From an uncultured Clostridia bacterium (GTDB taxonomy: Bacteria; Bacillota; Clostridia; UMGS1883; UMGS1540): DNA of 64,000 bases. A program made the position numbers and the translations under genes. Where the stretch lies: the NCBI GenBank assembly GCA_937966555.1, contig CALCLY010000031.1:1869-65868 (forward strand). The letters are read 5' to 3'. Under the pieces are notes generated by a model. It searched no databases. It was not told the origin of the DNA and saw only the letters and a list, made by a program, of their open reading frames with translations. Positions 13,101-38,274 of this stretch are shown here, piece after piece (position 1 is the first letter of the stretch; every line of letters begins with the position of its first letter).

Positions 13101-16100
13101 TTAAGCTCGGGCGCTGTGTCACCGTCATAATAAACTCTGTAAACAACATCTTTTCCGGCCATGAGCACCGTATCAACATTATTTTCGAAACTTACAGAAT
13201 TTAAAAGTGTCTGCGGTTTTGCATATGATGAACCGACAGCTCTGTCAACGCTTGTTGCAACAACGCTTGCGCCCTGACCTATACCCATATACTGAATATT
13301 TCCGTTTTCATCCTGTATCTCACGAACCTCAAGGAAACTCATTGTATGCGATGTTGTATCCGAGTTTTCTCCCAAAGCCTCCGTATCAAGGTCTATATCC
13401 TCAAGCTCGTCAACTTCACTTCCCGAAAGCAGTCTGAAATTGCCTTTGTCATAATAATATACAAATCCGCCGCTGAAAATAAATACCTTTATTCCGCCCG
13501 CTATAAACTTATTTGTTATAGCAAGTGTAATGCCTGCGAGTCTTCCGAGTCCCGGAACATTAAGCGAACCGTCAATCTTTCCGAGGAATGCAAATTCCGG
13601 AGTTGTTGTAAACGCCAGTGTTACTCCGCCTTTAACCACTCCCGAGAACAAATCAACCGTGCCCGACAGCCGCATTGTAAACCCTGTTGTCCAATCCATT
13701 TCGGCTTTTGCAATAAACTTTATCTGGTCAAAGTTTGCGGGCGACCCCGTTACGGCAAAGGAAAGTCCGTTTCCTGAGACAGACATATCTCCCTGCAGAT
13801 ACATAACGTTCAATATGTCTATAAGCGCCATAACGCTTACCGTTACGGGCGGTCTTCCTTCTCCCTGATAATTAATGGAGCTTGCCAGATCCGAAATACC
13901 TCCGCCGAGACCGCGTAAATTAAGCGTGCCCGGAACAATCGGAATTACAAATCCTTTTACCTCAAGATATATGCTGTCAAGGCATATCTTACCGTTGTTC
14001 ATTTCGGCAAGGCTCATGCGGAAAGCCGTACTTAAAGGTCCGATGCCGATACCAAGGTCCACGCCGGCATGGAATTCATATGTGTTAAACGAAGCGCCCA
14101 GACTGAACGCCGAAAGTCCGCCCTTGTTCTTGCTTCTTGCATTATCCGCATTCTGATTCTGACCTGCAGCGGTTGTTGCCGCACTGCTTCTTGAAGAAAC
14201 TATCTGAGATGATGTTGGGTTAGCCGCCGCAGCGCCGTTGCTTATCGTGGAATTGTTATTCTGTTTTCCGCCTGCCGGGAACACGGATTTTGGCAATTCC
14301 AGATTAACCGTTGCCGCAACTCCGACAAAGCCGGTTTTTATGTGTGTTGCGTCATTTTTATCCTCATGTTCACCGAAAAGCACGGAATCTATCGAAACAC
14401 CGAGCGAACCGCCGTCTCCGAAAGCTCCTGCTTTTTTTGTGGCGGAATTTCCGTCTTTAAAGACATTTTTCTTGCTTGCGTTATTGTTGTTATTATTGTT
14501 GTTATTGTTGTTATTGTTGTTATTGTTATTATTGCCGCTGTTGTTATTATTGTTGTTTAGATTGTTATTGCGATTATTGTTTTCATTTGAATTTGAAGCG
14601 GTATTCCTGGTTCCCGCAGAAGGTGTTCCCGTTGATGTTCCGGAAGATTCGCCCTGTGAGCCTTCGGACGAACTGTCACCCTTGCTCATGCCGAGCGGGA
14701 ATGAAACCTGACCGCTGAAATCTATCGTATATCTGCCATCCTGACAACCCAAAACACCGTAGTTTAAGTCAAATATGAAACCGCCGAGGTTCTGCAAAAG
14801 CCATCCTCCGCCGAGAAGCTGAAGCTTCGGTGCTTCAACACTGAAGTCATTTGTATCATACGAAAACAGTGCGTCCATGGGAAGTCTTATCATGAACTTA
14901 TGTTTCCATATTGTTGAAGCGCCTATAACGCTGAGATCACCGTCACCTTCAAGCTTCATAACATTAGGCAACCCGTTTGAGCCAAACTCCGCAACCATTC
15001 GAAGCGGAGTGTTTGAATCATAGTAAAGAATCCTGTTTACTTTGATTCCGTCGGAGCCGCCCACGGTTTCAAATCCCAGAAGATCGGGATTATTTTTCTC
15101 TGCACTTGTGCTTATGCAAAATCCTTTTTCTTTATTTGCACTTGCAGCGTCTTTTCCGTCTTTATAAAGAATTTTAAATATGCCTCTTGCCTCCATCAGC
15201 ATTTCGCCGTCTTCGCCGAGAGACTCTTTATATTCCTGAAACTGCTGTTCCACAGACTTTAAGCCGCTTTCACTCATTCCCGTATCAACCGTGAAAAGGC
15301 GCATATCATAATCGCGCTTTTTCGATGTTCTTGCAACAACGGCTATTGAATATCCGCGGTTTTTGTATTTTACGTCATTTGTTGAAGTTATGCGCTGCGA
15401 AGAATCGGAGAATACTATATCCTTCATACCCTCAAGGTTATTCTTGAATTTAATGGTAAGCGTATATTCGCCGAGTCTTCCCTCCATATCAACCAAAAGA
15501 CCGAGCTGCCTGTTTTCGGTGTCAACGGAGCAGCTGAAGCTGTCTATATTTATGACTTCTCCGCTTACAACATCCGTTAAAAACGCTGTCCAGTTTGATT
15601 TGTCCGACAATGCCTTAAAGTTTTGGCCGTAACCCATAACGCTGAAATACGAAGTGCCTTCGTAATATATGGTTGTGGGCTCTATCCCCGTAAACGCGAT
15701 GCTGACTTTTGAATCGCCAAGAGGAGGCATTGTTATAACTTTTGAGCCCACAGTCGGAACGGGAGTTGCGTCACCCGTCAGAGAAAACGTTATTTTCCTT
15801 GTATCTATTGACGTGCGAAGCGTATATCCTTCTTTTGGTTCATAAACAATGTCGGGAGCATCCGCGTCTTTGTTATTCTTATTTTTTTCATATACAGGGC
15901 GCGCTTTAAGCTTAACGGGAATATTTCTCCTGATTTCGCCGCGGTTTATATTTCCTATGCTCAAAACTTCCGATTCTTCCGTTTCGTCCGCCGTCCATAT
16001 TGCCGGCTCCTGTACCATATTAAGCTCGCTGTCCAAAACCTTATCCTGGAAGATCATCTGCAGCTTGCCGTTTATTATGGGACTTGACTCCGCATCGGAA

Positions 16101-17134
16101 TTATCAACCGTAACATACAGTGTTATTTCACCGTCATTTGCATAACCGTCTTTTTTCTCATTTGCTTTCAAAAGCTCTTTCTGAGTAACGGTCATTACAC
16201 AGTGCTCGGGAGAAGACTCCATTCCTCCGAGTTCTCCGACACCGTACATTGTATCAACCGACAGCGTCTCGCCGGCCTCAACCACTTCGGTATCGTATAT
16301 TATGGATACCGCACTGTCCGGATAAAAATACTCGTTATAATAATCGTCAAAATTCATACCCGGGTTCACGGTATAATCCCAAAGTGTATTTGCAAGGTTA
16401 TACCAGTGTGCCATCTGAACCTTATCGGGTGTACGGCGCATAGACTTATGCTGCAAAAGACCGTACGCGGTTGTTGTTGAGAAATTTACACTGTCGGAAA
16501 CGGAATACCATTCGGGTATACTGTCACCTGTAAATTCCGTCTCGCGCGAAATTGCGGTTGTTCCCCCGTTTTTGAAAAACGAACCTGCATCGTTATCCGC
16601 TGTCTTTGTATCAAGCAGAATTCTTATGCCAACCCATACGGCAGAGGAATTTGAATTTGTGTATGAATACTGAATATTTGCATAACCGCCGGATTCGCTT
16701 GCCGTATTTCCGTTTATTATTATATTTTGTGTAACTTCAACACCTTCTACCGCCCATTTTGAAACAATGGCGCGTCTTTCGGAGTCAAGCTGCACAACCT
16801 GCGGAGCTGCGGTAACCTTTCCCGCAGAACTTCCGTAAATATAATCGTGCGTTTCCGCATTAGCCAATCCGGCATTTTTTATGATACGTACTGTTGTATA
16901 TGAAGTTGCAAATTGATCGTCTCCGTCATACAAAAGCGGCTTATCATCGTCAAATCGTTTAGCCGGGATACCCTTTTTTGTATTGATGCCAAAGGAGGAT
17001 CCGTCAGCTTTTGATACAACTTCTATATAGTTGTTGTCAATTTTCAACTCATTATCCGCCAGCGCCGTGCACGGGATAATTCCCGCGCACAGAAGCACTG
17101 CCAGAAGCAAGGATATTATTTTTTTCATGTGCAT
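10163..17134 (-). CDS. Giant cell-surface protein (2323 aa): signal peptide, multiple Ig-like/beta-rich regions, Ser/Gly/Asn low-complexity linker, uncharacterised ~700-aa beta-rich region, three C-terminal SLH domains
   Basis: N-terminus MHMKKIISLLLAVLLCAGIIPCTALA. C-terminal ~190 aa hold three SLH repeats (ITRGEFVKLLVAAMG..., ITRQDAMTLVYRVF..., LREQVAKILWLGIV). RBS AAGGAGGT lies 11 nt after the upstream gene stop, i.e. translational coupling. Confidence 0.85.
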   Translation of the reverse strand: MHMKKIISLLLAVLLCAGIIPCTALADNELKIDNNYIEVVSKADGSSFGINTKKGIPAKRFDDDKPLLYDGDDQFATSYTTVRIIKNAGLANAETHDYIYGSSAGKVTAAPQVVQLDSERRAIVSKWAVEGVEVTQNIIINGNTASESGGYANIQYSYTNSNSSAVWVGIRILLDTKTADNDAGSFFKNGGTTAISRETEFTGDSIPEWYSVSDSVNFSTTTAYGLLQHKSMRRTPDKVQMAHWYNLANTLWDYTVNPGMNFDDYYNEYFYPDSAVSIIYDTEVVEAGETLSVDTMYGVGELGGMESSPEHCVMTVTQKELLKANEKKDGYANDGEITLYVTVDNSDAESSPIINGKLQMIFQDKVLDSELNMVQEPAIWTADETEESEVLSIGNINRGEIRRNIPVKLKARPVYEKNKNNKDADAPDIVYEPKEGYTLRTSIDTRKITFSLTGDATPVPTVGSKVITMPPLGDSKVSIAFTGIEPTTIYYEGTSYFSVMGYGQNFKALSDKSNWTAFLTDVVSGEVINIDSFSCSVDTENRQLGLLVDMEGRLGEYTLTIKFKNNLEGMKDIVFSDSSQRITSTNDVKYKNRGYSIAVVARTSKKRDYDMRLFTVDTGMSESGLKSVEQQFQEYKESLGEDGEMLMEARGIFKILYKDGKDAASANKEKGFCISTSAEKNNPDLLGFETVGGSDGIKVNRILYYDSNTPLRMVAEFGSNGLPNVMKLEGDGDLSVIGASTIWKHKFMIRLPMDALFSYDTNDFSVEAPKLQLLGGGWLLQNLGGFIFDLNYGVLGCQDGRYTIDFSGQVSFPLGMSKGDSSSEGSQGESSGTSTGTPSAGTRNTASNSNENNNRNNNLNNNNNNSGNNNNNNNNNNNNNNNNNNASKKNVFKDGNSATKKAGAFGDGGSLGVSIDSVLFGEHEDKNDATHIKTGFVGVAATVNLELPKSVFPAGGKQNNNSTISNGAAAANPTSSQIVSSRSSAATTAAGQNQNADNARSKNKGGLSAFSLGASFNTYEFHAGVDLGIGIGPLSTAFRMSLAEMNNGKICLDSIYLEVKGFVIPIVPGTLNLRGLGGGISDLASSINYQGEGRPPVTVSVMALIDILNVMYLQGDMSVSGNGLSFAVTGSPANFDQIKFIAKAEMDWTTGFTMRLSGTVDLFSGVVKGGVTLAFTTTPEFAFLGKIDGSLNVPGLGRLAGITLAITNKFIAGGIKVFIFSGGFVYYYDKGNFRLLSGSEVDELEDIDLDTEALGENSDTTSHTMSFLEVREIQDENGNIQYMGIGQGASVVATSVDRAVGSSYAKPQTLLNSVSFENNVDTVLMAGKDVVYRVYYDGDTAPELKVTKPDGTEYGTVIYDYDKTQEENNAAGANMLLSEKTDAETGTVKKYVYVNVSNNMLMDGNWKIESVNGAKISDYTVLSIPTVTPKLSIDSASIAGNTLSTSWTADDKADVTLLLVPCDENGNPAMTEYTDENGNTATTEHAGYIVKMAKGSSSGENIEINVPSGDYIVRLDSILNDSVYTSVYSKAKMHFDNPNTLAAPAVQATAGGDGRINVTSYVPQNATGINFRVFRRNDDGTSECLKGIGGYVAAEEGKSTLSTYFKGQSTLVDSSGAAVSTSVIEPGKTYYVTATAVNAEEGSGYYGSAEVQSADVMVPVPNPPQINVNITSFNAKNKTDDRNVSYTQIGNSNILIEYDILNMGAEPNDEVSVRFDIDEKQYGDVLKNDSSTGGHGYAAFNLSDGDHIVDIVFTNKAGDVTVETRKFSVDSIPADIKVLYPQNGSLYDPNVGIPVKILTDEGTSVEVYLDDTKVAGGVVENVNGANPDFAFERTIKVLAPKYSHEIKIVATDVNGNSATHIATVVNNAVSKISGIKILGTKPEGTTATELTAVGVDENGKELGIDIIKDRLKWKLVSDPSEAALTVQSGNSGAVVIPNGNNSFSVSAEWNVGSTTLTDIYDSGIVGEQSESGGKGNGGKHSSSAVSTELPPEVKELIKKVSSMLGEGSDVDAGKMYAGIDFTSKKSGNTVFAKGSDIKEENYLIHGTDTGTNSHLEGLPQGGKICSDVVALATLKEAPAMLVDLEVKDNANTDNIGVYYFADSIGKWMYIGGDYDAQRKMISAGYVGEGRYVVIENPNMGDEFADIDGNWASLYIRSLRLAKLTDGYIENGIKIFKPSNEITRGEFVKLLVAAMGENVDDSDVSMFEDASSIAGWAAPYAAAAYKKGWLQGSKTQTGIAANLSDKITRQDAMTLVYRVFFEGEKGSGNVSFSDGASVSEYAVDAVSFLTQNKIVSGYEDGTLKPLNFVLREQVAKILWLGIVK
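14473..14585. repeat. Imperfect (GTT/ATT)n trinucleotide microsatellite encoding a poly-Asn tract (NNNNNNSGNNNNNNNNNNNNNNNNN) in the giant SLH protein
   Basis: ~110 nt of gttattgttgttattgtt... on the + strand equals AAC/AAT codons on the - strand. The repeat is in frame, so slippage would change linker length, not reading frame. Confidence 0.6.
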
Positions 17135-17145
17135 TTACCTCCTTC

Positions 17146-20100
17146 TCAGCCTGCAATAAATACATACATTATCTGTGTGTTTCTGTTTTCGGTCTGCATA
17201 AACAGAGTATACATACCGGCTTCTTTCTGTTCAAGCTTAATTTTGGCATTCGGCAGTACAAGCGATTTCATCGAATGTCCTTTAAGCTGTGCTCCGTTGT
17301 AATAACCCTTTACAAAAGCATAAGAAACTTTTTTGCCCGATTTTTCGGCATTTACAAATGTTAAATCAAGCGAATCTGTAATCCAGTAATTTGTCTGCTC
17401 GCCAGGTATCAGAATATTTCCGTTTATTGCCGCAAATACATCGTCCTCACCTATAACCTGAATGTTTCTTGTTATAACCGTTTTATTGCCGGCATTATCC
17501 GTACCCGTTACGGTTACGGCATATCTTCCCGGAACATTTGCGTCAAACGTACCGTAATCTATTTCAGGTGTTTGGCTTACCGCTCCGGACTCCGCGTCAG
17601 AAACCGTCATTTTTTCAAATTCATTCTTATTGAATTCGCCTTTATTCACATAAACATCGCGTGTCCCTTCGTATGTTATCTCAGGAGGCGTAACGTCAAC
17701 ATATTTTACTTCGATATTGTATGTTGCGCTAATACCTGCGTCATTTGTAAGGGCAAACGAATATGTTCCGTTTTCAGTGGGCGTAAAGGTTATTTTGTCG
17801 GATTTTGCGCCGTTCTGAACAATATAAGACCTGATGCCCGATGCTCTCTGTGTTTCGGCAGCTACAGTAATTTCGGGCGGAACATTTGTCCATGATTCGG
17901 GATTTCCGCTGTGCGTAGCCTTCGGCGGCTCTGTGTCAATACACGAAACGCTTGCCGTAAGTGAATTTACATTGCCGGCATCATCCGCAAACTTAATGAG
18001 GTAATTTCCGTTTGATTTAACCGTAATGTATTTTCCGTGTTCGGCGCCCGCAACAGTTATGGTGTCGTTTTCGCCGCCGCTTAAAATATCGCCTGCAGAT
18101 TTTGCGGAAAGAACTATTGTTGCATAGCCGTATGCAGTTTCAAGTGTTCCGCTATCCGTTACAGCCTTGTTAGGTTCAACTGTGTAATCAAGCTCCGGAA
18201 CCGTTTTATCAATATTGTCAACAGACACAGACAACCATTCGGTTTCGTTTCCGCTTGTATCACGGAATTTAAAGAGTGTGATACCGTTATTCTCAAAGCT
18301 GTATGTCACATATGTTGAAAATGCATTTGAATATCCTTTTATAACTGCTCCGTTTTGGTCTGCAACCATATAGTCCGCAAGCTTTGTCAGTGTAATATTA
18401 GCTGTTACATCCGCATTTGTTTTGCGCGTCATATCGGTGCTGTAGGAAATGTACGCCGCAGGAGGTGTTCTGTCTAAATCCTTAACCTCAAGAGAAACCT
18501 CAACCGTATTGCCGACAGCGTCAGCAAATACAAGTTTTGCAAAACCGTTATTTGCAAATTTCAGCGAAGCCGTAAGGTTTTCTCCGCTTCTGTCTATGAA
18601 TACATCGCTTGCGGCAAAATCTTTTCCGCTGCTGTCGCGCCCTGTAACCGATACAAATTTCAGTTCTGAAGCGTTTGTTATGTTATCATTCACGTTAACA
18701 AGCGCCGTAACACTGTCTTTTTCAAGCGGCGTAGCGGAGTTATATATGTAATCCGCATCGGCTTTCGGCGCCTCATTGTCAAACTTGATACCGCTTATCG
18801 TAAGTGTGCTGCGATTGCCCGCTTTTGATGTGTAATCGTAGTGGTATTCGCCGTTATCGGATATTCCGATAATGTCAAGAAGCTTTCCTTCCTTATCATA
18901 TATATATGCTTCTGCTTTTCCTCTGAGGTTTCCTCCGATATACACATAGTTAAATGTGCTGTAAGCATAATCATTCATATCGGCAGTCAAATCAAATTTA
19001 TCAGTTATATCCTCGGTTGCATTCATGATCTTTGCTGTTATCTGAGCAGGTGTTTTATCTATATAATCCACGTTAACCGGAATTTCCTTAACATTTCCCG
19101 CCAAATCGTAAAGCTTAAAAATAACCCAGCCGTTATCATAGAATGTATAATCCGTTTTGCCTTCCATGCGTGTGTACATATCAATACACTCAACTTTAAT
19201 TTCCGATGAAGATGATTTATCATCTTCAATATCGAATATGTTTACCGTAACATCGGTGTTTACAGGCGAACCGTCTGCCGGCTTTTGAGGCGAGTAAATA
19301 ACCTTGCACTCGGGGGCTTCCCTGTCAAAAAAGTCATAAACATATGTCTGCATGCCCTCCGCCTTTTTGTCCGGATCACTTGCGGCTGTCGGGTTAATTA
19401 CCAAAAATTCAAAGCTGCCGTTTTCCGTTACGGTAAGTGTAAACTGTTTGTAAAGCGGCTTTGTACCAGTGTATTCCGCCGGTGCCGTAACTTCTGTACC
19501 CGAAGCTCCTTCGGGCAAATCCGCCAAATAATATTCGTCATATATGCCGCCTGTCGGTACAGTAACGGTTATCTCGGCGCTGTCAGCATTTGTATATTTT
19601 TCAGTAAACTCGCTTCCCATTACATTTATTTTGATATTGTCCTCGGGAATGCTCGGCAATGTAGGATCAATCCATGTAATGTCCACGGGAAGTTCGGTTG
19701 TCCTTCCAAGCTCGTCAAGCAGACTGTAGCGCGCATTTATATTATTTCTGAACTTAAGTATATGATTTGTTGTAAATCCGCTGCCGTCAATGCTCATATA
19801 GCTCTTCATGTATTTCTGCGCTATAAGCTCTGCCGCACTATGTCTTATTGCACAGAGCACACTTGCCGCCGATGGAACTGCGTTTATTTCAGCCAGTGTC
19901 AGTGCATTATCGTACAAATCATTATACGGATTCTCATAAAGCACATAATCTGCAAAGTACGGACGAAGTGCCTCGTTAATTTTATTAAGATCCGCTTCCT
20001 CCTGACCCGCAAACGGCGACTGATAAGCAGTGTCGGTCATTTTGTTCAAAAGCGTTATATCAAAATCGTCACCGAAAAATTCGTAAACTTCACTTTCGGT

Positions 20101-23100
20101 CAGCGTATCTGAGTATAGCGGGTTTCTTATAAGAAGTTTTCCGCTTTCTGCCGGAGTAAGCGAATCGGCAGAAAATTCCGAGAAAGTATAAGAATCAAAC
20201 TCTTCCGGATATGCCAGAACATTAATTCTGTAACCGTCCGCAACAGGGTATTTCGATTCTCCTTCAAAATCTCCGCCCTCTGAAGCAAGCCCTGCTCTGA
20301 GCAATGTAATAATCGCTTCCTGTTCTTCATTTGTATAATCGCCGCGAAGCGAACGCAAATCCGAATATCTCTCATATTCTGTTTCTATTTCACCGGTTTT
20401 GCCGTAATCTGCATTATAGTAACATTCGTTTATAAGATAATCATAAATATCAAGCGTCGGAACATTTGTAGTGTTATATTCAAGATAATCATCCGTTGTC
20501 GGTGAATTTTTGAACACTGCCTTTTCTTCGTCTGTAAGCTCTGTGCCTGCGTTCACCTTCTCTGTTATAGTTTTATACATTGCACAAGCTTCTTCAAAAG
20601 TAATTGTCTTTAAAGCACCTTCATATACGTATGTATATCCTTCGCTTCTCTTTTTCTGAACGCTTTCCTGCATTGCAGAAATATTATCTTCAGAATCAAC
20701 CGTATACTGAAGCAGTGTCGGTATATCGGTTTTCGCCGTCATTGTAACGCTTCCGCCGGTTGCTGTAGACGGAGTGTACGAAGAGAGCAGCTCTGCCGTA
20801 TCGTCGGATGCATTTATGGTTGCAATAAGCTTTGTCTCCACATTGCCCGCTCTGTCTCCTACTCTCACATATACATTATAAGTTCCTGTCGGCAAAGCTC
20901 CGTAAGAAAGTTTATACTGAAGTTCTTTGTCGTTTACTTCACCGGAGGACATATTGTAGCTTTCGGAAATACCGTTTGTCGGTTCAGGTTCATAACTCGG
21001 AGCCGGACTGTATGACGGAACAGGTTCCGAGCTTTCTCCTGATTTTCCTGTCTTTTCAAGCTTAGCATAAGCAAAACCCTTGCTGTCGCCAAAGTATCCG
21101 CCGTTTTCAAAACCTGTCGGATCACCGTTTTCGTCAAACGTTGTCGGTCTTGCGGAAGCTTCTTCCGTGAAGAAATCATTATCCGAAGGTTCACCCTGTG
21201 TTATTGCTGCGCTGAGCACGGTCAGAGAATCATCATCTTTTGCCGTAAACACAAACGATCCGTATTTTGCCGCACCGTTTTTGGGAATCTGAGCCGATGA
21301 GTTGAGCTGAAGTTCTGGAATGTTTCTGTCGAAACAGTTAATATCAACCTGCTTTACGGAACTTCTTCCGGCTTTATCCGAAATCGTTATTTCGACAACG
21401 CCGTTTTCGGATACTTCAATTACGGCTTTCCCCGCACGCGGATGTTCCTTTAAAGTACCGCCCGAAATGCCTATTGTTATCTCCCCGGGTGTTTCATATG
21501 CATCAGTGTTATAATTAATATCAAATGTTACGGTCTTGGCATTTGTCTTACCGGATATGTTTGCTGTATCTACATATGTCACTTCGGGCGCATATTTGTC
21601 AAGCACAAAATCAAGTGATGCCGAAGACATATTGCCCGCCATGTCATATACCTCAAACGTATAACGGTATTTCATTACACCTTTATCGTAAACCACATCA
21701 AAATCATTAACAAGCGGATTTGTTACCGTTGCCGTACATCCATTTGTTACGCGTTTTCTTTCCGTAAACTTAAAACCGTTTTTGCTGCGGACAATATCAA
21801 GCGCATCTTTTGCCTCATCGTCAAAAGCGGCGGAAATGTATTTTAAATCCGCAAAATCTTTTAATATGAATGTTCCGTCACCAAGCTGATTTATGTTTGA
21901 AGGCGCAACAGACAATGATTTTATTTCGGGTTTTGCAAAATCAACGCGCATATCATTGCTCCAGAATGTGCTCTCATGCCCGAATATGTCACGCACGGTT
22001 AATTTAATCTTTGCATTCTGCGCATTTAAATAATCTTCATTTTCGCCGAATTCTTCATTGAAGTTTATCGGCACGGTCTCGTTTATACTGTTTAAAACAT
22101 ATGTTTTGGCAAGTTTGTCTTTAATAAAGAGCTCTGCCTTCGGCGCTCTTGAAGATGAAAAATCAATATTGCCGTTCTTGGCATAAGCTTTGTAAGCGGC
22201 GCCGTCATCATCAAGGATGAATTTAACTTCATAGTTTGAATTCACACCGTCTCTTTTTCCGGTCGTTTCTATTGAAGCTGTGGGCGCTTGTGTATCAAAG
22301 AATACATTTATTGTATAATCCTGTACCTCTCCCTCCGGCTGAAGAATCACACGTGCAAAAAGTGTATATTCTCCCGAAAAACTTCCGCCAAATTGGTTTT
22401 GAATCTCTTCGGAAGCAAAGTCAACGCTGTTTAAGTTTGACGGTGTTAACGTTACGCTCTGCGTTGCATTGTTCAAAGTAGCGGTTGAACCCTTCACCCA
22501 GCCGTAACTTATATCAAACTTTACATCACCGTTTTGAGGAATCTTTACACCTTCTAGTTTTATGCTGTGTTTGTCGGAAAGGGGTGAATAATCGTCAACA
22601 AACCGCAAGTCAAAATCTCTGTCAGCCGTTACAAAATCTTCTGATTTAACGGGCTTTTTTGTTTTATTGTAAAATTTATCATAGAAAGTTGCAGTAACAT
22701 TCCATTTGTTATAACTTCCTTTGTCAGCCATGATGTTTATAACATGATCTGAAGCATCTGTTTTTCTGTTTTGATCCGCTCCGCTTGTAACATCATGAAG
22801 AACATATGTAATAAGAGGAAGAACTGTTCCTTCTCCGGGGTCGGTCACGTCATATTTCACCGCAACGTTTCCGCCGCTTCTTTCGGTGCTCACACTGTTT
22901 ATTACGGGTCCTGTGCTGTCTATGTAGGCTCTTATATCTTTCTTATCCGCATTTGTAAGAGTATTTCCGGCAGCATCATTTATCGAATACTCAATATAAA
23001 CCGGAAGATTTTCGGGGTAATCCGAAATCATTGTAATATCGGAAAGTGAAACTTTCGCCGTATTGCCGCTTGACACGGTTCCGAGCGTAAGTGTTTCCGC

Positions 23101-25050
23101 GGCATTGCTCTGTGACGTGCCTATTTTAAGCTTATGTTTGCCGCCCTCATCATAATATACAAATGAAATCTTCACTCCGTTTGTATCGAATCCACCGGCA
23201 TCGGTAAACGTAATGGTGGAATCGCTTCTGAATTTTGTATCCCAATTGCCGCTTACCTTTGTTCCTTTTACGGAAGGCGCTGCGGTGTCTATCATTATTC
23301 TGCAGTTAAACGGCGCAAGAGTGCTTGCATTTCCTCTGTCAACCTTTATAAGAGAAAAATCTACATCCATATTTGCAATATTTTTAAGTGCGGCGTTTCC
23401 GCATGTAACGGCATCTTTCGTAAATGTAAATGCTCCGGACGAATCAAATTCGCCCGCAAAATTCACATAATACTCGTCAAGTCCCGCTATTTCCTGCGGT
23501 GTGTATTTAAAATACAATTCCGTTGAAGCTTCCGAGTTCATTCCGAAGGCATGTGAATTTTTATCAATACCGACTGTTCTCGCGCTCACAAGCCCGGCAT
23601 AAACATACTTATCGGTAGCTTTTCTCTGTTTATCATAAACCCTGAGCTTAAGTTTTGTATCTCCGGCTCTGAGACTGTTTTTCTGAATCTCGTCATTAAG
23701 CACTATTCTAAAAATCGGACCGGTTGTGCTCTTTCCGAAAATAACAGGCTGAAGCTCTGTTTTGCTGCTGTTTGTTTTTATCTCGGAAGGCAATGTTGCT
23801 CCGAACAAATTGCAATCGGCATTTTTGTTTGTCTTTGTGGGATAAAACTTTCTGTCAGTGAAAGAATCGCTTGCAAGAAGAGTTTTTGTATCGTCCACAA
23901 TTTTATTCTTGTTCTCTTCTATTGAAGCTATCGAGCTGTCGGCGATATTATTTCCGGCAACGTCTGTGATACAGTCTTTGCTGTTTAAAATAAGACCGAC
24001 AGGCTGAGCATAAACGTCAAGCTTTACCTTGTTTTGTGTATTGTCGGGAATTTTAAACTCAAATATAGCTCTGTATCCTTCGGCACTGTTTCCCGATAGT
24101 CCCGTGCAGTTTGCCGTGAAATAGCCGTCCTTTTCGGGATTTCCTTTGATTTTAAGCTTAATGTCATTCTTCTTTTTAAGAACAACTTTTTCATCGAAAT
24201 CCACATAGAATTTAATTGTATCCCCTATTGCCGCATACTTTGCAGAACCTGCAACATTTGAGCGGAATGTAAATCCGTCATCAAGCACACCTGCCTTTGT
24301 TGCCTTAGGTCCCTGCACATCACGCAAAAATACCCTTACCTTCTGAACAGAGCTTTTATTGAACTTTTTAAGTCCTTTTCTCTCCGAACGCAGGTCCATA
24401 TGAAATCTGTTTATATCTTTATTAACCGATATCCAGCCGTCGGACACTTCTCTTGTTCCTCCGTACCAGTTGGACTCTGTTGTAAGCTCCTGCTGAATTG
24501 CTGATTTTCCCGAAGCGTAAAGACGCAGATTTGCAATGCCGACATGCTTGTTGGTTGTTCCCTTGTAGTTATTCGTCTCTGCGGCTATCGCCATCTCAAG
24601 GTCGCCCTTTCGAACGAGCTTTAAAATATCTTCGCTGAATTTTCCGGAAAAGTCAACCTTATAGTTTTTCTTGTTATTTGACGGATTATATATAGCATAA
24701 AAATATTTTCCTTTATCGAGATATGCACCGTAATCCGTCTGAGACGTATCATAAACAAACACCATTCCGTCGCTGGCGTAGTCATACATATCTTTACCTC
24801 TGTTAAAACGCATCTGGTTAAAAACAGAACGGCTTGCGGAAATACTTCCTATATTCTTGTCATACTCTCCCTTTTTCAGAATCTTTCCGCTTTGAAGGTT
24901 TACGGTACCTGTTTTGCCCTTTGGCACATTTGCCCAGTTTACTTCGCTTCTGCCGCCGAAAGACATAGTGTCCGCAAATGCACCGGCGGGTATAAGCGTA
25001 AGTCCTATAAAAAGGGCCATCGCTGCACTTAAAAACCTCATTTTTTTCAA
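17146..25050 (-). CDS. Giant secreted/surface protein (~2634 aa from TTG 25050; alternative ATG at 25041): signal peptide then many Ig-like/cadherin-like beta domains; no recognisable wall anchor
   Basis: Signal peptide KKMRFLSAAMALFIGLTLIPAGAFA. RBS GGAGG (25062-25058) lies 7 nt before TTG 25050. Beta-domain boundary motifs recur (DTTAPE..., DKTAPQITA, DNEAPKAD, DRTPPAAYI, DKTVPELD, DTEPPKAT, DVTPPEIT), suggesting >=10 tandem Ig-like modules, plus a Pro/Ser/Tyr-rich segment YSPAPSYEPEPT. Stop is 11 nt before the next gene's RBS. Confidence 0.8.
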   Translation of the reverse strand: MKKMRFLSAAMALFIGLTLIPAGAFADTMSFGGRSEVNWANVPKGKTGTVNLQSGKILKKGEYDKNIGSISASRSVFNQMRFNRGKDMYDYASDGMVFVYDTSQTDYGAYLDKGKYFYAIYNPSNNKKNYKVDFSGKFSEDILKLVRKGDLEMAIAAETNNYKGTTNKHVGIANLRLYASGKSAIQQELTTESNWYGGTREVSDGWISVNKDINRFHMDLRSERKGLKKFNKSSVQKVRVFLRDVQGPKATKAGVLDDGFTFRSNVAGSAKYAAIGDTIKFYVDFDEKVVLKKKNDIKLKIKGNPEKDGYFTANCTGLSGNSAEGYRAIFEFKIPDNTQNKVKLDVYAQPVGLILNSKDCITDVAGNNIADSSIASIEENKNKIVDDTKTLLASDSFTDRKFYPTKTNKNADCNLFGATLPSEIKTNSSKTELQPVIFGKSTTGPIFRIVLNDEIQKNSLRAGDTKLKLRVYDKQRKATDKYVYAGLVSARTVGIDKNSHAFGMNSEASTELYFKYTPQEIAGLDEYYVNFAGEFDSSGAFTFTKDAVTCGNAALKNIANMDVDFSLIKVDRGNASTLAPFNCRIMIDTAAPSVKGTKVSGNWDTKFRSDSTITFTDAGGFDTNGVKISFVYYDEGGKHKLKIGTSQSNAAETLTLGTVSSGNTAKVSLSDITMISDYPENLPVYIEYSINDAAGNTLTNADKKDIRAYIDSTGPVINSVSTERSGGNVAVKYDVTDPGEGTVLPLITYVLHDVTSGADQNRKTDASDHVINIMADKGSYNKWNVTATFYDKFYNKTKKPVKSEDFVTADRDFDLRFVDDYSPLSDKHSIKLEGVKIPQNGDVKFDISYGWVKGSTATLNNATQSVTLTPSNLNSVDFASEEIQNQFGGSFSGEYTLFARVILQPEGEVQDYTINVFFDTQAPTASIETTGKRDGVNSNYEVKFILDDDGAAYKAYAKNGNIDFSSSRAPKAELFIKDKLAKTYVLNSINETVPINFNEEFGENEDYLNAQNAKIKLTVRDIFGHESTFWSNDMRVDFAKPEIKSLSVAPSNINQLGDGTFILKDFADLKYISAAFDDEAKDALDIVRSKNGFKFTERKRVTNGCTATVTNPLVNDFDVVYDKGVMKYRYTFEVYDMAGNMSSASLDFVLDKYAPEVTYVDTANISGKTNAKTVTFDINYNTDAYETPGEITIGISGGTLKEHPRAGKAVIEVSENGVVEITISDKAGRSSVKQVDINCFDRNIPELQLNSSAQIPKNGAAKYGSFVFTAKDDDSLTVLSAAITQGEPSDNDFFTEEASARPTTFDENGDPTGFENGGYFGDSKGFAYAKLEKTGKSGESSEPVPSYSPAPSYEPEPTNGISESYNMSSGEVNDKELQYKLSYGALPTGTYNVYVRVGDRAGNVETKLIATINASDDTAELLSSYTPSTATGGSVTMTAKTDIPTLLQYTVDSEDNISAMQESVQKKRSEGYTYVYEGALKTITFEEACAMYKTITEKVNAGTELTDEEKAVFKNSPTTDDYLEYNTTNVPTLDIYDYLINECYYNADYGKTGEIETEYERYSDLRSLRGDYTNEEQEAIITLLRAGLASEGGDFEGESKYPVADGYRINVLAYPEEFDSYTFSEFSADSLTPAESGKLLIRNPLYSDTLTESEVYEFFGDDFDITLLNKMTDTAYQSPFAGQEEADLNKINEALRPYFADYVLYENPYNDLYDNALTLAEINAVPSAASVLCAIRHSAAELIAQKYMKSYMSIDGSGFTTNHILKFRNNINARYSLLDELGRTTELPVDITWIDPTLPSIPEDNIKINVMGSEFTEKYTNADSAEITVTVPTGGIYDEYYLADLPEGASGTEVTAPAEYTGTKPLYKQFTLTVTENGSFEFLVINPTAASDPDKKAEGMQTYVYDFFDREAPECKVIYSPQKPADGSPVNTDVTVNIFDIEDDKSSSSEIKVECIDMYTRMEGKTDYTFYDNGWVIFKLYDLAGNVKEIPVNVDYIDKTPAQITAKIMNATEDITDKFDLTADMNDYAYSTFNYVYIGGNLRGKAEAYIYDKEGKLLDIIGISDNGEYHYDYTSKAGNRSTLTISGIKFDNEAPKADADYIYNSATPLEKDSVTALVNVNDNITNASELKFVSVTGRDSSGKDFAASDVFIDRSGENLTASLKFANNGFAKLVFADAVGNTVEVSLEVKDLDRTPPAAYISYSTDMTRKTNADVTANITLTKLADYMVADQNGAVIKGYSNAFSTYVTYSFENNGITLFKFRDTSGNETEWLSVSVDNIDKTVPELDYTVEPNKAVTDSGTLETAYGYATIVLSAKSAGDILSGGENDTITVAGAEHGKYITVKSNGNYLIKFADDAGNVNSLTASVSCIDTEPPKATHSGNPESWTNVPPEITVAAETQRASGIRSYIVQNGAKSDKITFTPTENGTYSFALTNDAGISATYNIEVKYVDVTPPEITYEGTRDVYVNKGEFNKNEFEKMTVSDAESGAVSQTPEIDYGTFDANVPGRYAVTVTGTDNAGNKTVITRNIQVIGEDDVFAAINGNILIPGEQTNYWITDSLDLTFVNAEKSGKKVSYAFVKGYYNGAQLKGHSMKSLVLPNAKIKLEQKEAGMYTLFMQTENRNTQIMYVFIAG

Positions 25051-25114
25051 TGCAATTCCTCCTTTTGGTTTCATTTTTTTTGCATCCGTTGTGTTGTAAT
25101 TGATTATTTGTTCA

Positions 25115-25144
25115 ATTATATCACAAAAACCACTCCTCGTCAAG
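25115..25144 (-). promoter_or_regulatory. Consensus sigma-A promoter for the giant-protein operon (TTGACG at 25144-25139, 18-nt spacer, TATAAT at 25120-25115)
   Basis: Read on the - strand: TTGACGaggagtggtttttgtgaTATAAT, ~55 nt upstream of the start codon at 25050. Confidence 0.5.
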
Positions 25145-25182
25145 CTGTTCAACAAATTATTTCATATTTTGGAATATATACA

Positions 25183-25228
25183 AAAACCGAAGAAAAGCAA
25201 AATAAAAATTGCTCCTTCGGCTTTTCAA
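25183..25228 (-). terminator. Rho-independent terminator (stem CCGAAGGAGCAA...TTGCTTTTCTTCGG + U-run), palindromic and likely bidirectional
   Basis: The hairpin at 25187-25220 is followed by TTTTTG on the - strand. It terminates the small-ORF transcript and copZA read-through, immediately upstream of the giant-operon promoter. Confidence 0.7.
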
Positions 25229-25320
25229 TTCCCGATCAAGGGAATACCTTTCTGTATATAATTCACCCGAAAAAAACTTCTCGCATACAAGTACCCAAAC
25301 AATGTAAGCAATATGCCCAT
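25225..25320 (-). CDS. Putative small hydrophobic protein, 31 aa (MGILLTLFGYLYARSFFRVNYIQKGIPLIGN)
   Basis: Not in the ORF track (<60 aa). ATG at 25320 is preceded by RBS ACGGAGGGA with 7-nt spacing. The stop sits directly against the terminator hairpin, and a dedicated consensus promoter lies upstream. Confidence 0.4.
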   Translation of the reverse strand: MGILLTLFGYLYARSFFRVNYIQKGIPLIGN

Positions 25321-25358
25321 AAAAGTTCCCTCCGTAACAAAATTGTAATCTTATTTAA

Positions 25359-25387
25359 AGTATACCATTTTTTTTACGAAAGGTCAA
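25359..25387 (-). promoter_or_regulatory. Consensus sigma-A promoter (TTGACC 25387-25382, 17-nt spacer, TATACT 25364-25359) driving the 31-codon ORF
   Basis: - strand: TTGACCtttcgtaaaaaaaatggTATACT, located just downstream of the copZ stop. Confidence 0.45.
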
Positions 25388-25393
25388 TAGTTT

Positions 25394-25648
25394 TTACTTC
25401 AAAAATCCAAAAAAACCTTTTTTCTCATACGGCTCTTCTTTTACGCTCTCTAAAGTATATCCAAGAGATTTAACCGTTTCCTCAAGTTTCGTCTCATCAA
25501 GCGCATCGGCACTTATTATTTCGGTCTCTCCTTTCGAATGTGAAGACGTAACTTTCTTCACTTTAAATACGCTTCTTATAGCGTCATTTACATGCGCCTC
25601 GCACATTCCGCACATCATACCATCAATTTTAAGTATTGTTTTAATCAT
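25394..25648 (-). CDS. copZ: Heavy-metal-associated (HMA) copper chaperone
   Basis: GMMCGMCEAHV metal-binding motif in an 84-aa ferredoxin-like fold, directly downstream of copA. Confidence 0.85.
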   Translation of the reverse strand: MIKTILKIDGMMCGMCEAHVNDAIRSVFKVKKVTSSHSKGETEIISADALDETKLEETVKSLGYTLESVKEEPYEKKGFFGFLK

Positions 25649-25655
25649 TATAAAT

Positions 25656-27890
25656 CTACTCCTTTTTAAAAAAATTTAATCTTAAAGCGTTTGTCACAAC
25701 ACAAAAGCTTGAAAGGCTCATTGCAGCAGCTGCAATCATGGGATTTAAAGTCAATCCCAATCCGACAAAACACCCTGCCGCAACAGGTATTCCCAAAACA
25801 TTGTAGAAAAATGCCCAAAAAAGATTTTCGTGTATATTACGCAATGCCGCTTTACTGAGTTTTATTGCCGTCGATACATCTTTTAATGTGCTTTTCATCA
25901 AAACAATATCGGCAGCATCAATTGCAACGTCGGTACCGGCGCCTATTGCAATGCCGATGTCGGCACGTGTAAGAGCCGGTGCATCATTTATTCCGTCACC
26001 TACCATAGCTGTTTTTCCTTCTTTAATCAGCTTGCGAACCGCCTCTTCTTTGCCGCTCGGCAAAACATCTGAAATCACTTCGTCAACCCCGGCAGCTTTT
26101 CCGATAGCTTTTGCCGTTTTTTCATTGTCACCTGTCAGCATTATAACTCGTATACCCATTTTTTTAAGTTCGGAAATTGCCTCCGCACTGTCAGGCTTAA
26201 TTGTATCGGCGATTGCTATAATGCCGCACAGTTTTTTGTCGGCCGCAAAGAATACAGGTGTTTTACCCTGAGATGCATATTCTTCCGCATGTCTCTCCGC
26301 TTCATTTGAAATGCATATTTTTTCGCTTATAAAAGCCAGATTTCCGCCGAGAATTTCCTTGCCTTCAAGCATTGCCCGAATTCCGTTTCCCGGAAGCGCC
26401 TCAAACTCCGAAGTCTCCAAAACTTTGATGCCTTCATCGAGTACTTTCTCTGTCACGGCGCGTGCAAGAGGATGTTCGCTTTTCGCTTCGGCAGCCGCGG
26501 CTATGGCGAGAAACTCTTTTTTATCAAATCCCTCCGCCGCTTCAATATCCGTAACACGCGGTTTACCCTCTGTTATTGTTCCTGTTTTATCAAGCGCGGC
26601 AATTTTTATTTTACCGGTATTTTCAAGCGTTGCGGCTGTTTTAAACAAAATTCCGTTTTTGGCACCGACTCCGCTTCCGACCATAACCGCAACAGGTGTT
26701 GCCAGTCCCAAAGCGCACGGACAGCTTATCACAAGTACCGATATTCCTCTTGCCAAGGCAAAACTTATATCTCTTCCCAGAAATAGCCATACAATTGTTG
26801 TTATCGCAGCAATCGCAATAACTGTCGGAACAAAAATGCCCGAAACTTTATCGGCTGTTTTCGCTATAGGTGCCTTTCCTGCGGCAGCATCGCTCACCAT
26901 TGCGATGATTTTCGAAAGTGTGGTATCTTCACCGACGCGTGTGGCGCGGCATTTTATAAAACCCGACTGGTTTATGGTAGCTCCCGAAACAGTGTCCCCG
27001 GGTTCTTTATCAACCGGAATACTTTCTCCCGTAAGCGCCGACTCATTGACCGCCGTGCTGCCCTCAGTTATAACTCCGTCAACCGGAATGCTTTCTCCGG
27101 GTCTTACAACAAAAATATCATCCTTTTTTACTTCTTCTATCGGAACTTTAATTTCTTTTCCGTCTCTTAAAAGCACAGCACTTTGAGGCGCCAAATTCAT
27201 AAGCGCACGCAGTGCATCGGTTGTTTTTCCTTTTGAGCGCGCCTCAAGCATCTTTCCAACCGTTATCAGCGTCAAAATCATACCGGCGGACTCAAAATAA
27301 AATTCGTCCATATATTTCATAACCGCCTGCATATCTCCCGAAACCTGTGCGCCGCTCATGGCAAAAAGAGCGTAAACACTCCAGATATAGGAAGCCGCCG
27401 AGCCTAAAGCCACAAGTGTGTCCATATTCGGCGCACGGTTTGCAAGCGCTTTAAATCCGCTTATAAAGAACTTTTGGTTTATTACCATTATAATTCCCGC
27501 CAAAATAAGCTGCACAAGTCCCATTGCTATGTGGTTTCCGTCAAACCACGACGGCAGAGGAAATCCCCACATCATGTGACCCATCGAAAAATACATCAGA
27601 ATCACTAAAAAAACAACTGACCAGATAAGCCGCTTTTTCAGCTGCTTTATCTCGCCGTCCGAGTCCGATTCATCGCTTTCGGCTTTTTCCGCACCCTTTT
27701 TCTTTATTCCGTAACCGGCATTGCGAACGGCTTTTTCTATTGCTTTTGAATCGGCAGTTCCCTCCACCGTCATAGAATTTGTCAGCAAATTTACGGAGCA
27801 TTCCGTAACTCCCGCAACGCCCGACACAGCTTTTTCAACTCTCGCCGAGCACGCCGCGCAGCTCATTCCTTTAATACTGTAATGTTCCAT
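25656..27890 (-). CDS. copA: Copper-translocating P1B-type ATPase
   Basis: N-terminal HMA ([15 protein letters not shown]), CPC motif ([11 protein letters not shown]), phosphorylation site DKTGTITEG, hinge GDGINDAP; 744 aa. Confidence 0.9.
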
Positions 27891-27939
27891 TTAAAACACC
27901 TCTCTTCCCAATGTTTTATTTTTCCCGATTTTTAAATTT

Positions 27940-28239
27940 TTACTTCATAAGTTTTTGTATTGTGGCAGTGAGCTCATCTATTATTTCATCCTTGCCGTCT
28001 CTGATATCTTTCACAACACAGCTTCTTATGTGATTTGCAAGTATTTCGCGGTTAAACGCATTCACGGCAGCCCCTACAGCGGCGGACTGAATTAATATGT
28101 CATTGCAATATGCGTCCCGTTCCACCATCGACTGCAATCCGCGGATTTGTCCTTCTATTCTCTTAAGCCTGTTAAGCAAACTTTTTTTCTGTTCTTCACC
28201 TCTTACGGTATGTCTTTCACAGCAGCACTGTTTTTCCAT
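27940..28239 (-). CDS. csoR: CsoR-family copper-sensing transcriptional repressor (99 aa; ATG 28239 after RBS GGAAGGAGG)
   Basis: LLNRLKRIEGQIRGLQSMVERDAYCNDILIQSAAVGAAVNAFNREILANHIRSCV matches the CsoR/RcnR fold with the conserved Cys/His. The longer ORF-track N-terminus lacks an RBS. Confidence 0.85.
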   Translation of the reverse strand: MEKQCCCERHTVRGEEQKKSLLNRLKRIEGQIRGLQSMVERDAYCNDILIQSAAVGAAVNAFNREILANHIRSCVVKDIRDGKDEIIDELTATIQKLMK

Positions 28240-28257
28240 AATTGCCTCCTTCCTGTT

Positions 28258-28307
28258 ATACCCCCGCAGGGTATTTATATTATATACCCTCTCGGGGTAT
28301 TTGTCAA
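28258..28307 (-). promoter_or_regulatory. cop operon promoter (TTGACA 28307-28302; TATAAT 28284-28279) with two CsoR-type operators ATACCCCCGCAGGGTAT (28258-28274) and ATACCCTCTCGGGGTAT (28284-28300)
   Basis: Two GC-rich pseudo-palindromes of the ATACCC-N5-GGGTAT type: one lies in the -35/-10 spacer, the other just downstream of the -10. This matches the known CsoR operator architecture. Confidence 0.6.
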
Positions 28308-28319
28308 TACCTTTTAGCA

Positions 28320-28357
28320 AAAAAACGGCCGGCAATATTTCGCCGACCGTTTTTCCC
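28320..28357 (-). terminator. Rho-independent terminator after mrp (stem ACGGTCGGC...GCCGGCCGT + U7)
   Basis: - strand: GGGAAAAACGGTCGGCGAAATATTGCCGGCCGTTTTTTTGC, immediately after the mrp stop at 28358. Confidence 0.6.
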
Positions 28358-29176
28358 TTAAAAAATTTTATTTGTTATATTATCAAGCCATTTTCCGTCA
28401 ATTTCATATGCCTTGCCGGCATCACACAATGCGGCTATCTCAGGCTGCATCGGTATTTTTGCAATCAAGTCTATTCCGCAGCGTTTTGCTACTTCTTCAA
28501 CGCGGCTTTCTCCGAATACACGAATTTCTTTTCCGCAATCGGGGCACACAACATAACTCATGTTTTCAACAATACCGAGTATAGGTATATTCATCATATT
28601 TGCCATGTTGACAGCCTTTTCAACAATCATTGAAACAAGCTCCTGAGGAGACGTCACTATTACAATACCGTCCACAGGAACGGACTGAAATACAGTCAGC
28701 GGAACATCACCCGTTCCGGGAGGCATATCTATAAGCATCACATCAACGTCTCCCCACATAACCTCTGTCCAAAATTGTTTTACGGTTCCGGCAATAACAG
28801 GTCCTCTCCATACTACGGGCGAAGTCTCATCAGGCAGAAGCAAATTGAGCGACATAAGCTTTATACCCTCTTCTGTTTCTACGGGATAAATACCTTCATC
28901 ACAGCCTTCCGCTCTTTTATGAACGCCAAACATTTTCGGAATTGAAGGTCCCGTAATATCAGCGTCAAGCACTGCAGTTTTTTTGCCCTGTTTTTTTGCG
29001 GCAGAAGCAAGAAGCGCTGTTACAAGCGATTTTCCGACGCCGCCCTTGCCGCTTACAACTCCTACAACCTTTTTTATATGTGATTTTTCGTGCGGCTGTT
29101 CAATAAAACTTTTAGGATCTCCGGATCCACAGCTTTGCGAGCAGTTGCCGCAATCGTGATTACATGATTCACTCAT
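28358..29176 (-). CDS. apbC: Mrp/NBP35-family Fe-S cluster carrier ATPase
   Basis: Walker A GKGGVGKS; N-terminal Cys-rich segment; 272 aa. Confidence 0.85.
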   Translation of the reverse strand: MSESCNHDCGNCSQSCGSGDPKSFIEQPHEKSHIKKVVGVVSGKGGVGKSLVTALLASAAKKQGKKTAVLDADITGPSIPKMFGVHKRAEGCDEGIYPVETEEGIKLMSLNLLLPDETSPVVWRGPVIAGTVKQFWTEVMWGDVDVMLIDMPPGTGDVPLTVFQSVPVDGIVIVTSPQELVSMIVEKAVNMANMMNIPILGIVENMSYVVCPDCGKEIRVFGESRVEEVAKRCGIDLIAKIPMQPEIAALCDAGKAYEIDGKWLDNITNKIF

Positions 29177-34799: not shown

Positions 34800-34998
34800 T
34801 GCCACAACCGTTTTAATGCCACATATATCGGTTATGATAGCGCTCCACTTTTTTGTGACAGTACACGGCATATTCTGCCGTATCCCAACCCGCACGGGAC
34901 GGAAACCCCGCGAAGATTTCGGCGGTCAAGCCTAACGCCGTACAACATTTCCGTGTTATATGTACGGCGGTCTTCTTAAACCGCGCCTCTATCAAACA
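34800..34998 (-). ncRNA. Lysine riboswitch (L-box) in the 5' leader of the NhaC-family transporter gene
   Basis: - strand leader: UGAUAGAGGCGCGG...GUACGGCGUUAGGCUUGACCGCCGAAAUCUUCGCGGGGUUUCC...GGGUUGGGAUACGGCAGAAUAUGCCGUGUACUGUCACAAAAAAGUGGAGCGCUAUCA. It has the L-box hallmarks: AGAGGCGC start, GCCGAA, GGGG, UGUCA, and closing GGAGCGCUAUC pairing back to the 5' end. L-box control of NhaC-type genes is established in Firmicutes. Confidence 0.7.
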
Positions 34999-35003
34999 AA
35001 TAT

Positions 35004-38127: not shown

Positions 38128-38274
38128 TATAAACCCAAAATTAAAGGTTCTCTGCCCGCAGACAAAGAACCTCTTAAAATCTTCAGAAGTATCCCTCGGC
38201 AGGATTTATTCTTGTACCTGCTGTCTGCGGAACGAGAGTATTATATCATAATATAAATAGTTTGTCAAGTAAAA
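38128..38274 (-). promoter_or_regulatory. rplJ-rplL promoter (TTGACA-N17-TATAAT on the - strand near 38262-38234) and structured L10-leader-type 5' UTR
   Basis: - strand: cTTGACAaactatttatattatgaTATAAT, followed by ~110 nt containing a long stem (GUUCUUUGUCUGCGGGCAGAGAACC). Position and structure fit the autoregulatory L10 leader of Firmicutes; not verified against a covariance model. Confidence 0.45.

Follow-up and report, generated by a model that had tools for sequence, protein, structure and literature searches.

The DNA between the copper operon csoR-copA-copZ and an operon of giant proteins in an uncultured Clostridia bacterium (GTDB lineage Bacteria; Bacillota; Clostridia; UMGS1883; UMGS1540) contains a 31-codon open reading frame (ORF) with a promoter, a Shine-Dalgarno sequence (SD) and a terminator of its own. 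Is this small unit a gene, and is it the product or the act of its expression that selection keeps? We analyzed it in a stretch of 64,000 nucleotides (the window; positions 1,869 to 65,868 of contig CALCLY010000031.1, assembly GCA_937966555.1), and coordinates are those of the window unless another contig is named. Judged by comparison with a sister lineage, the ensemble is not a product of chance. The best explanation, to which we give a probability of about 0.5, is a lineage-restricted gene for a small hydrophobic protein, carried by an independent mini transcription unit of ~170 nt.

Expression signals and their conservation in a sister lineage

The promoter, SD, 31-codon ORF and hairpin terminator named in a preliminary description of this DNA are all present on the minus strand, and the unit stands between the cop operon and the giant-protein operon, as that description held. 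The parts, in order of transcription, are as follows.

25648-25394, minus strand: copZ, 84 aa, HMA domain; last annotated gene of the csoR-copA-copZ operon; stop codon 25396-25394
25387-25359, minus strand: promoter P1; -35 TTGACC (25387-25382), 17-nt A-rich spacer, TG-extended -10 TATACT (25364-25359)
25353-25321, minus strand: 5' untranslated region (UTR) of ~33 nt, counted from an inferred transcription start; holds the conserved block TTGTTACGGAGGG with the SD GGAGGG (25333-25328)
25320-25225, minus strand: small ORF; ATG at 25320, 31 codons, product MGILLTLFGYLYARSFFRVNYIQKGIPLIGN, stop TGA 25227-25225
25225-25182, minus strand: intrinsic terminator; A-tract, 17-bp stem with a 2-nt bulge, 8-nt loop, U5
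25143-25115, minus strand: promoter P2 of the giant-protein operon; TTGACG-N17-TATAAT with TG

The -35 hexamer of P1 begins 7 nt after the copZ stop codon (25394 to 25387). In a consensus scan P1 scores 10/12 with TG (TGg directly before the -10) and P2 scores 11/12 with TG. The gap between GGAGGGA and the ATG is 6 nt, a trivial correction to the 7 nt given earlier. The terminator has a predicted folding energy of -19.8 kcal/mol (z = -4.9), and the A of the TGA stop codon is the first paired base of its hairpin. P2 sits ~40 nt beyond this terminator and is followed by the giant gene, with a likely TTG start at 25050; because P2 lies downstream of the terminator, the giant gene would be independent of P1. 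The window contains 7 promoter-like sites and shuffled sequences lead us to expect 5.2, which is no excess, so the single window sequence alone cannot show that the ensemble goes beyond chance.

The case for the unit comes from a second lineage. Identity among copZ relatives has a gap between 99% and 81%, and the protein at 81% amino acid identity (P0008) sits on contig L102. This contig is fully syntenic (rimM-trmD-parA-csoR-copA-copZ-[small ORF]-giant gene) and has a called 59-aa gene at the position of the small ORF. The neighboring genes have a ratio of nonsynonymous to synonymous divergence (dN/dS) of ~0.1, and synonymous sites are saturated between the window species and L102.

copZ, window against L102: dN 0.11, dS 1.59, third-position identity 0.55
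copA, window against L102: dN 0.12, dS 1.22, third-position identity 0.55
giant gene, window against L102: dN 0.11, dS 0.95, third-position identity 0.62

Since dS in the neighbors is 0.95-1.6, neutral DNA is expected to be ~55-62% identical, and ~60% identity served as the neutral yardstick for the P values of the blocks of the unit.

P1 block: 33/35 identical (94%), spacer included; P = 5e-6 against neutral
First 18 nt of the 5' UTR (variable part): 9/18; not above neutral
SD to ATG: 20/23 (87%), with the same SD-ATG spacing; P = 0.005
ORF body: 50/88 (57%); not above neutral
Stop codon and terminator: 34/44 (77%), stem preserved; P = 0.012
Terminator-P2 spacer: 22/34 (65%); not above neutral, the least conserved flank

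By this measure purifying selection acts on the promoter, SD, start codon and terminator, and the ORF body has diverged at the rate of neutral DNA. The promoter scan of L102 recovers P1 as TTGACC-17-TATACT and P2 as TTGACT-17-TATAAT, both with TG. Its terminator, changed on both arms in comparison with that of the window, forms a perfect stem (-30.7 kcal/mol, z = -6.8), and the stop codon in L102 lies 3 nt from the first paired base A of the hairpin and 7 nt from the GCC core. The preliminary description proposed a search of related genomes for conservation of the ORF; in L102 the signals are conserved and the ORF body, at 57% identity, is at the neutral level, and we found no other relatives.

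Two observations concern the promoter region itself. The P1 spacer TTTCGTAAAAAAAATGG (25365-25381) is kept in L102 at 15/17 positions, and the P2 spacer has diverged though its hexamers are kept. This suggests an extra constraint on P1, such as binding of a regulator or a bend at the A-tract. In L102 the small gene has a near-perfect palindrome, GATATACTGTATACAGTAATATC, in its 5' UTR (5285-5320 of that contig), where it overlaps the -10 and the start of transcription. The window species lacks this palindrome, which could serve as an operator or form a 5' stem-loop.

Coding character of the small ORF

In both lineages the conserved ATG opens a frame that meets no stop codon until the terminator is at most a few nt away, over 31 codons in the window and 59 in L102; the probability of such an open frame in dinucleotide shuffles is 0.157 and 0.038, respectively. 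The 31-codon ORF is homologous to the C-terminal half of the 59-aa ORF, from which it differs by an in-frame 87-nt (29-codon) indel. The indels inside the ORF are of 87 and 3 nt, both in frame, and the homologous C-terminal parts share their reading frame. The L102 ORF has codon periodicity (chi-square p = 0.0007), with pyrimidines at 75% and G at 3% of second codon positions. Its hydrophobicity is specific to the frame (grand average of hydropathy, GRAVY, 1.10 against 0.35 and -0.07), and it contains two hydrophobic segments, with a best 19-residue Kyte-Doolittle window of 1.66. Four of its six frames are stop-free, a state reached by 0/20,000 shuffles. From these properties, the 59-aa version looks protein-coding and membrane-like. 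For the 31-aa peptide, AlphaFold2 predicts a single helix over residues 2-25 (predicted local distance difference test score, pLDDT, 81.5), weak evidence that is compatible with a membrane-associated helix.

Several results weigh against a gene that is kept for its peptide. The first is the neutral-level divergence of the ORF body given above. Over 30 alignable codons dN is 0.71 and dS 1.02, a dN/dS of ~0.7, so that the synonymous/nonsynonymous comparison named as a possible refutation in the preliminary description detects no amino acid constraint against this one sister lineage. Identity by codon position is 0.50/0.47/0.60, opposite to the pattern of a constrained coding sequence. The peptides agree at 9/24 positions in frame 0 (BLOSUM score 35), no better than the translations of frames 1 and 2 (7/23 and 8/23; BLOSUM scores 27 and 43). 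The window ORF is without codon periodicity (p = 0.75), and its GRAVY of 0.69 is not frame-specific, another frame giving 0.75. Its best 19-residue Kyte-Doolittle window is 1.16, under the customary transmembrane threshold of 1.6. The transmembrane helix described earlier was thus a generous call. SD variants also segregate within the species (GAAGGG, a weakening change, in 2/20 copies and GGAGGA in 1/20). Finally, the comparison is of two lineages and has little power.

The 20 non-redundant copies from the same species are nearly identical, and the peptide is almost invariant. The ORF contains 2 segregating sites in 93 nt (n = 20), a synonymous TTG>TTA and G9V, and the 90% cluster adds the peptide variants A13E and I29S; the three peptide variants are non-conservative singletons or doubletons. 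From the noncoding flanks (~9 sites in 141 nt), ~6 segregating sites would be expected in the ORF against the 2 observed (Poisson P ~0.07 by our estimate), a diversity too low for measuring selection. Diversity at the locus peaks from the UTR to the SD (pi 0.024), and the terminator has only one SNP (single-nucleotide polymorphism) within the species, at 25201 in the loop.

We propose that the small gene works as follows. It would be transcribed from the near-consensus, housekeeping-type P1, with additional read-through from the copper-inducible csoR-copA-copZ operon. Translation would begin at the strong SD and ATG, and the transcript would end at the intrinsic terminator. The product would be a short hydrophobic helical peptide associated with the membrane, of which the window species may keep only the second hydrophobic segment and the basic tail, the sister lineage having both segments. 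Selection would keep the general character of the product (an open frame and a hydrophobic, helical peptide) and not the residue sequence. The 31-aa version may have arisen by truncation or be in decay, perhaps on its way to losing its function. A role, for example as a modulator of a membrane protein such as CopA, is conceivable, and the small ORF would be a weak candidate for the membrane-protein regulator suggested earlier. The view of a deliberately expressed small peptide is supported by the selected expression signals and the frame open in both lineages, and not by its residues.

Transcription context and rival explanations

No terminator separates copZ from the small ORF, and no hairpin is found before 25225. 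The minus-strand terminator-like sites in 25150-28500, other than the one of the unit, are all inside copA. With no intervening terminator, the cop operon is expected to read through the small ORF, which would then be co-transcribed, and the terminator should also end the cop operon transcripts. The cop promoter is a perfect consensus, TTGACA-N17-TATAAT (28307-28279, minus strand), directly followed by the inverted repeat ATACCCCCGCAGGGTAT at 28258-28274, which we take to resemble a CsoR-type operator. Very likely this is the copper-regulated promoter of csoR-copA-copZ. P1 is without such a repeat, and the CsoR-type operator lies at 28258-28274 only. As P1 lacks the operator and no terminator follows copZ, we expect constitutive expression from P1 plus read-through under copper stress.

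The unit might instead be a cis-acting transcription module with a functionless peptide, in which the terminator insulates the cop operon from the giant operon, P1 is a tandem upstream promoter with partial read-through, and the ORF is at most a leader cistron that modulates termination. The absence of a terminator after copZ fits this idea, as does the neutral rate of the ORF body against the conserved P1, SD-to-ATG stretch and terminator. The P1 spacer, conserved beyond the need of a promoter when set against the diverged P2 spacer, hints at a bound regulator. In both lineages the stop codon abuts the hairpin, so a ribosome terminating there would, from the size of its footprint, cover part of the 5' arm. 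Leader-peptide attenuators of the trp and pyrBI type have the same layout, with a promoter and a short ORF whose stop codon meets or closely precedes a terminator, and with a large operon following on that strand. These, however, depend on read-through, and here the giant gene has its own strong, conserved P2 after the terminator. The hairpins of both lineages are strong, the ORF is without a run of regulatory codons, and its length varies two-fold between the sister lineages. The protein-like periodicity of the 59-aa ORF is unexpected for a pure spacer, and homologues of the giant protein at 50% identity occur without the unit.

RNA folding adds to these objections. In the minimum-free-energy folds of the window and L102 only the terminator is common to both; the stems upstream differ, and no antiterminator pairing is conserved. 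In the window the SD is predicted to pair with a U-rich part of the ORF and to form a stem of 13 bp (-19.9 kcal/mol, z = -3.0). We rejected this as a conserved SD-sequestering stem, since it was not recovered in L102. Rfam 15 gives no match overlapping 25183-25387 at gathering score, and the best relaxed match is rli40 (11.7 bits against a gathering score of 100). On balance, a cis-acting module with a functionless peptide is possible but rather unlikely.

A relic is somewhat less probable again. The ancestor would have had a ~59-aa, two-segment gene like that of L102, of which the window lineage lost 29 codons; the remainder would be non-functional, and its signals would persist because the loss is recent or because they have other roles, such as ending the cop operon. 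That the L102 ORF has the codon periodicity and frame-specific hydrophobicity that the window ORF is without fits such decay, and so do the segregating SD variants, the high diversity from UTR to SD and the non-conservative peptide variants. Against this, the deletion is exactly in frame and leaves the frame open up to the terminator, and P1 and the SD-to-ATG stretch are as conserved as those of a functional gene over a dS of ~1 or more. The ORF has fewer segregating sites than its flanks predict. L102 may instead have gained a segment, as a T-A-F-[FI] motif is present in both halves of its ORF.

It is also conceivable, but doubtful, that the ORF is a young, perhaps de novo-born cistron kept for being transcribed and translated. 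Selection would then act on the promoter, SD, ATG, open frame and the geometry of the stop at the terminator, and the peptide would drift neutrally and vary two-fold in length. If true, translation up to the hairpin would tune leakage from the cop operon and P1 into the giant surface-protein operon, linking copper stress to surface-protein expression.

The improbable last alternative is the type I toxin suggested in the preliminary description, a membrane-damaging peptide restrained by an antisense or trans-acting antitoxin RNA. Rapid divergence and orphan status are common among type I toxins, and in the window the predicted stem could occlude the SD. A length of 31-59 aa, a hydrophobic N-terminus, a basic C-terminal tail and a stand-alone unit are generic features shared with toxins of Firmicutes such as Fst, TxpA, BsrG, SprA1/PepA1 and the CD0977.1 type of C. 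difficile (PMC7699646, PMC10730256). In contrast to those systems, the opposite strand within and next to the unit has no sigma-70-like promoter in the window or in L102, by a consensus scan that a weak or trans-encoded antitoxin could escape. The terminator-P2 spacer, the place for a convergent antitoxin promoter, is the least conserved flank, and the SD-occluding stem is confined to one species. The ORF is single-copy in the window, has no phage, plasmid or viral match and no significant match in Pfam, NCBIfam or PADLOC. An unopposed toxin expressed from a near-consensus, apparently constitutive promoter with a strong SD would kill the cell, and a 29-codon deletion that removed one hydrophobic segment was tolerated.

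The opposite strand does contain long ORFs that cover the small gene, its promoter P1 and the 3' part of copZ: 25108-25473 (plus strand, 121 aa) in the window and 5112-5453 (minus strand, 113 aa) in L102. We rejected them as genes: their similarity is limited to where they cross conserved promoter and copZ DNA, and Pfam gives them no significant match. A composition poor in stop codons probably accounts for both.

Distribution, known systems and other features of the window

The preliminary description expected that most annotation pipelines would miss the ORF; not every pipeline does, as the exact 31-aa ORF was called by gene callers on contigs in 81 blocks of a public assembly index. All of these contigs come from human-gut metagenomes or metagenome-assembled genomes (Hadza, Nepal and others), and the gene order is throughout rimM-trmD-parA-csoR-copA-copZ-ORF-giant gene.

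Outside the two lineages the small protein was not found. A HMMER profile of the two peptides recovered only both inputs from 1.84 billion representative proteins, and a k-mer protein search with the 59-aa protein of L102 returned only itself. Searches of Pfam, NCBIfam, PADLOC, PHROGs and PDB sequences gave no significant match; the best family match is YmcE_antitoxin (E = 0.11, 13 bits against a cut-off of 27 bits), and no PDB chain was matched at E <= 10 by the profile or by a single sequence. There is no paralogue within the 64-kb window. BLAST against plasmids and phages gave no match. In viral contigs the P1 pattern has 0 matches and the SD-to-ATG pattern has 41, none followed by a similar ORF; these look like chance.

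A scan of contigs with copZ listed at least 80 loci from other Clostridia, at identities of at most 73%, with the window species not among the matches listed. By BLAST and nhmmer the element is in none of the 80 listed copZ loci, nor in seven further loci at 74-76% identity. Some ~75 of the other listed copZ loci have enough downstream sequence, and none has an SD-preceded small hydrophobic ORF after copZ. Four copZ relatives at 74-76% (P0007, P0015, P0017 and P0030) were set aside as non-syntenic; they have a two-HMA copA and an AMP-binding gene downstream.

The giant protein was followed in the same way. Its N-terminus as an anchor in a protein search gave one match at 48%, on a 2.1-kb contig without upstream intergenic DNA, and a metagenome scan gave two loci of the same species, the same 2.1-kb contig (L111) and five loci at 50% identity. 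None of the loci at 50% identity contains the small element by BLAST or nhmmer. One of the five, L108, was read in detail; upstream it has tRNA genes, and both the cop operon and the small ORF are missing. By these searches the small gene is an orphan that only the two lineages carry, with no general link to cop operons or to the family of the giant protein.

Small hydrophobic proteins that act on transporters are an established class, with KdpF (29 aa, KdpABC), MgtS (31 aa, MgtA) and AcrZ (49 aa, AcrB) as examples (PMC12648545). The small ORF resembles them in its length of 31-59 aa and its single predicted helix, and it adjoins the operon of a P-type ATPase (copA) with which it is probably co-transcribed. 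It differs in having its own CsoR-independent promoter, in lacking detectable residue-level conservation and in resembling no PDB chain in sequence, even among the structures with subunits of this kind. It also does not co-occur with copA and copZ beyond the two lineages, as the ~75 other listed copZ loci indicate.

Unannotated small ORFs of human-gut metagenomes have been described in catalogues of small protein families (Sberro et al., bioRxiv 10.1101/494179; GMSC, PMC11364881). The small ORF resembles them in being of at most 50 codons, from a human-gut bacterium, hydrophobic, without a known domain and recurrent in gut assemblies; it differs in being present in two lineages only, without measurable amino acid constraint. 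If expressed, it would be one more lineage-specific small hydrophobic protein in the largely uncharacterized pool of gut Clostridia. It has no bearing on any long-standing open question, and the evidence comes from two lineages only. Its conserved signals (94% in the promoter, 87% from SD to ATG) beside an open, neutrally diverging ORF of two-fold variable length make it a clean natural test case for product against act of expression.

Highly similar CopZ-like chaperones of 84 aa (60-76% identity) occur in records labelled as Lachnospiraceae, Oscillospiraceae/Ruminococcaceae and Christensenellaceae, and even in Bacteroidaceae and 'actinobacterium' bins, with varying downstream genes. This suggests that the cop cassette spread horizontally or that bins are contaminated.

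The giant-protein operon contains two tandem ORFs of ~2634 aa and ~2323 aa (10163-25050, minus strand). The first begins with what resembles a signal peptide, and its matches to Ig-like domains (Big_13, Bact_surface_Ig-like) are no more than faint. Other metagenomic lineages have homologues of its N-terminal 365 aa at 50% identity, there in another genomic setting with tRNA genes as neighbors, and one contig of the same species, L002, has the gene in two pieces (773 + 1861 aa). In its 5' UTR a homopolymeric A tract (25074-25081) is A7, A8 or A9 among same-species contigs, which could be a slipped-strand change affecting expression of the giant surface protein, or assembly or sequencing noise.

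Elsewhere in the window, two RNA elements on the minus strand match at Rfam gathering score: a lysine riboswitch at 34830-34999 (78.8 bits) and a ribosomal protein L10 leader at 38131-38248 (52.9 bits).

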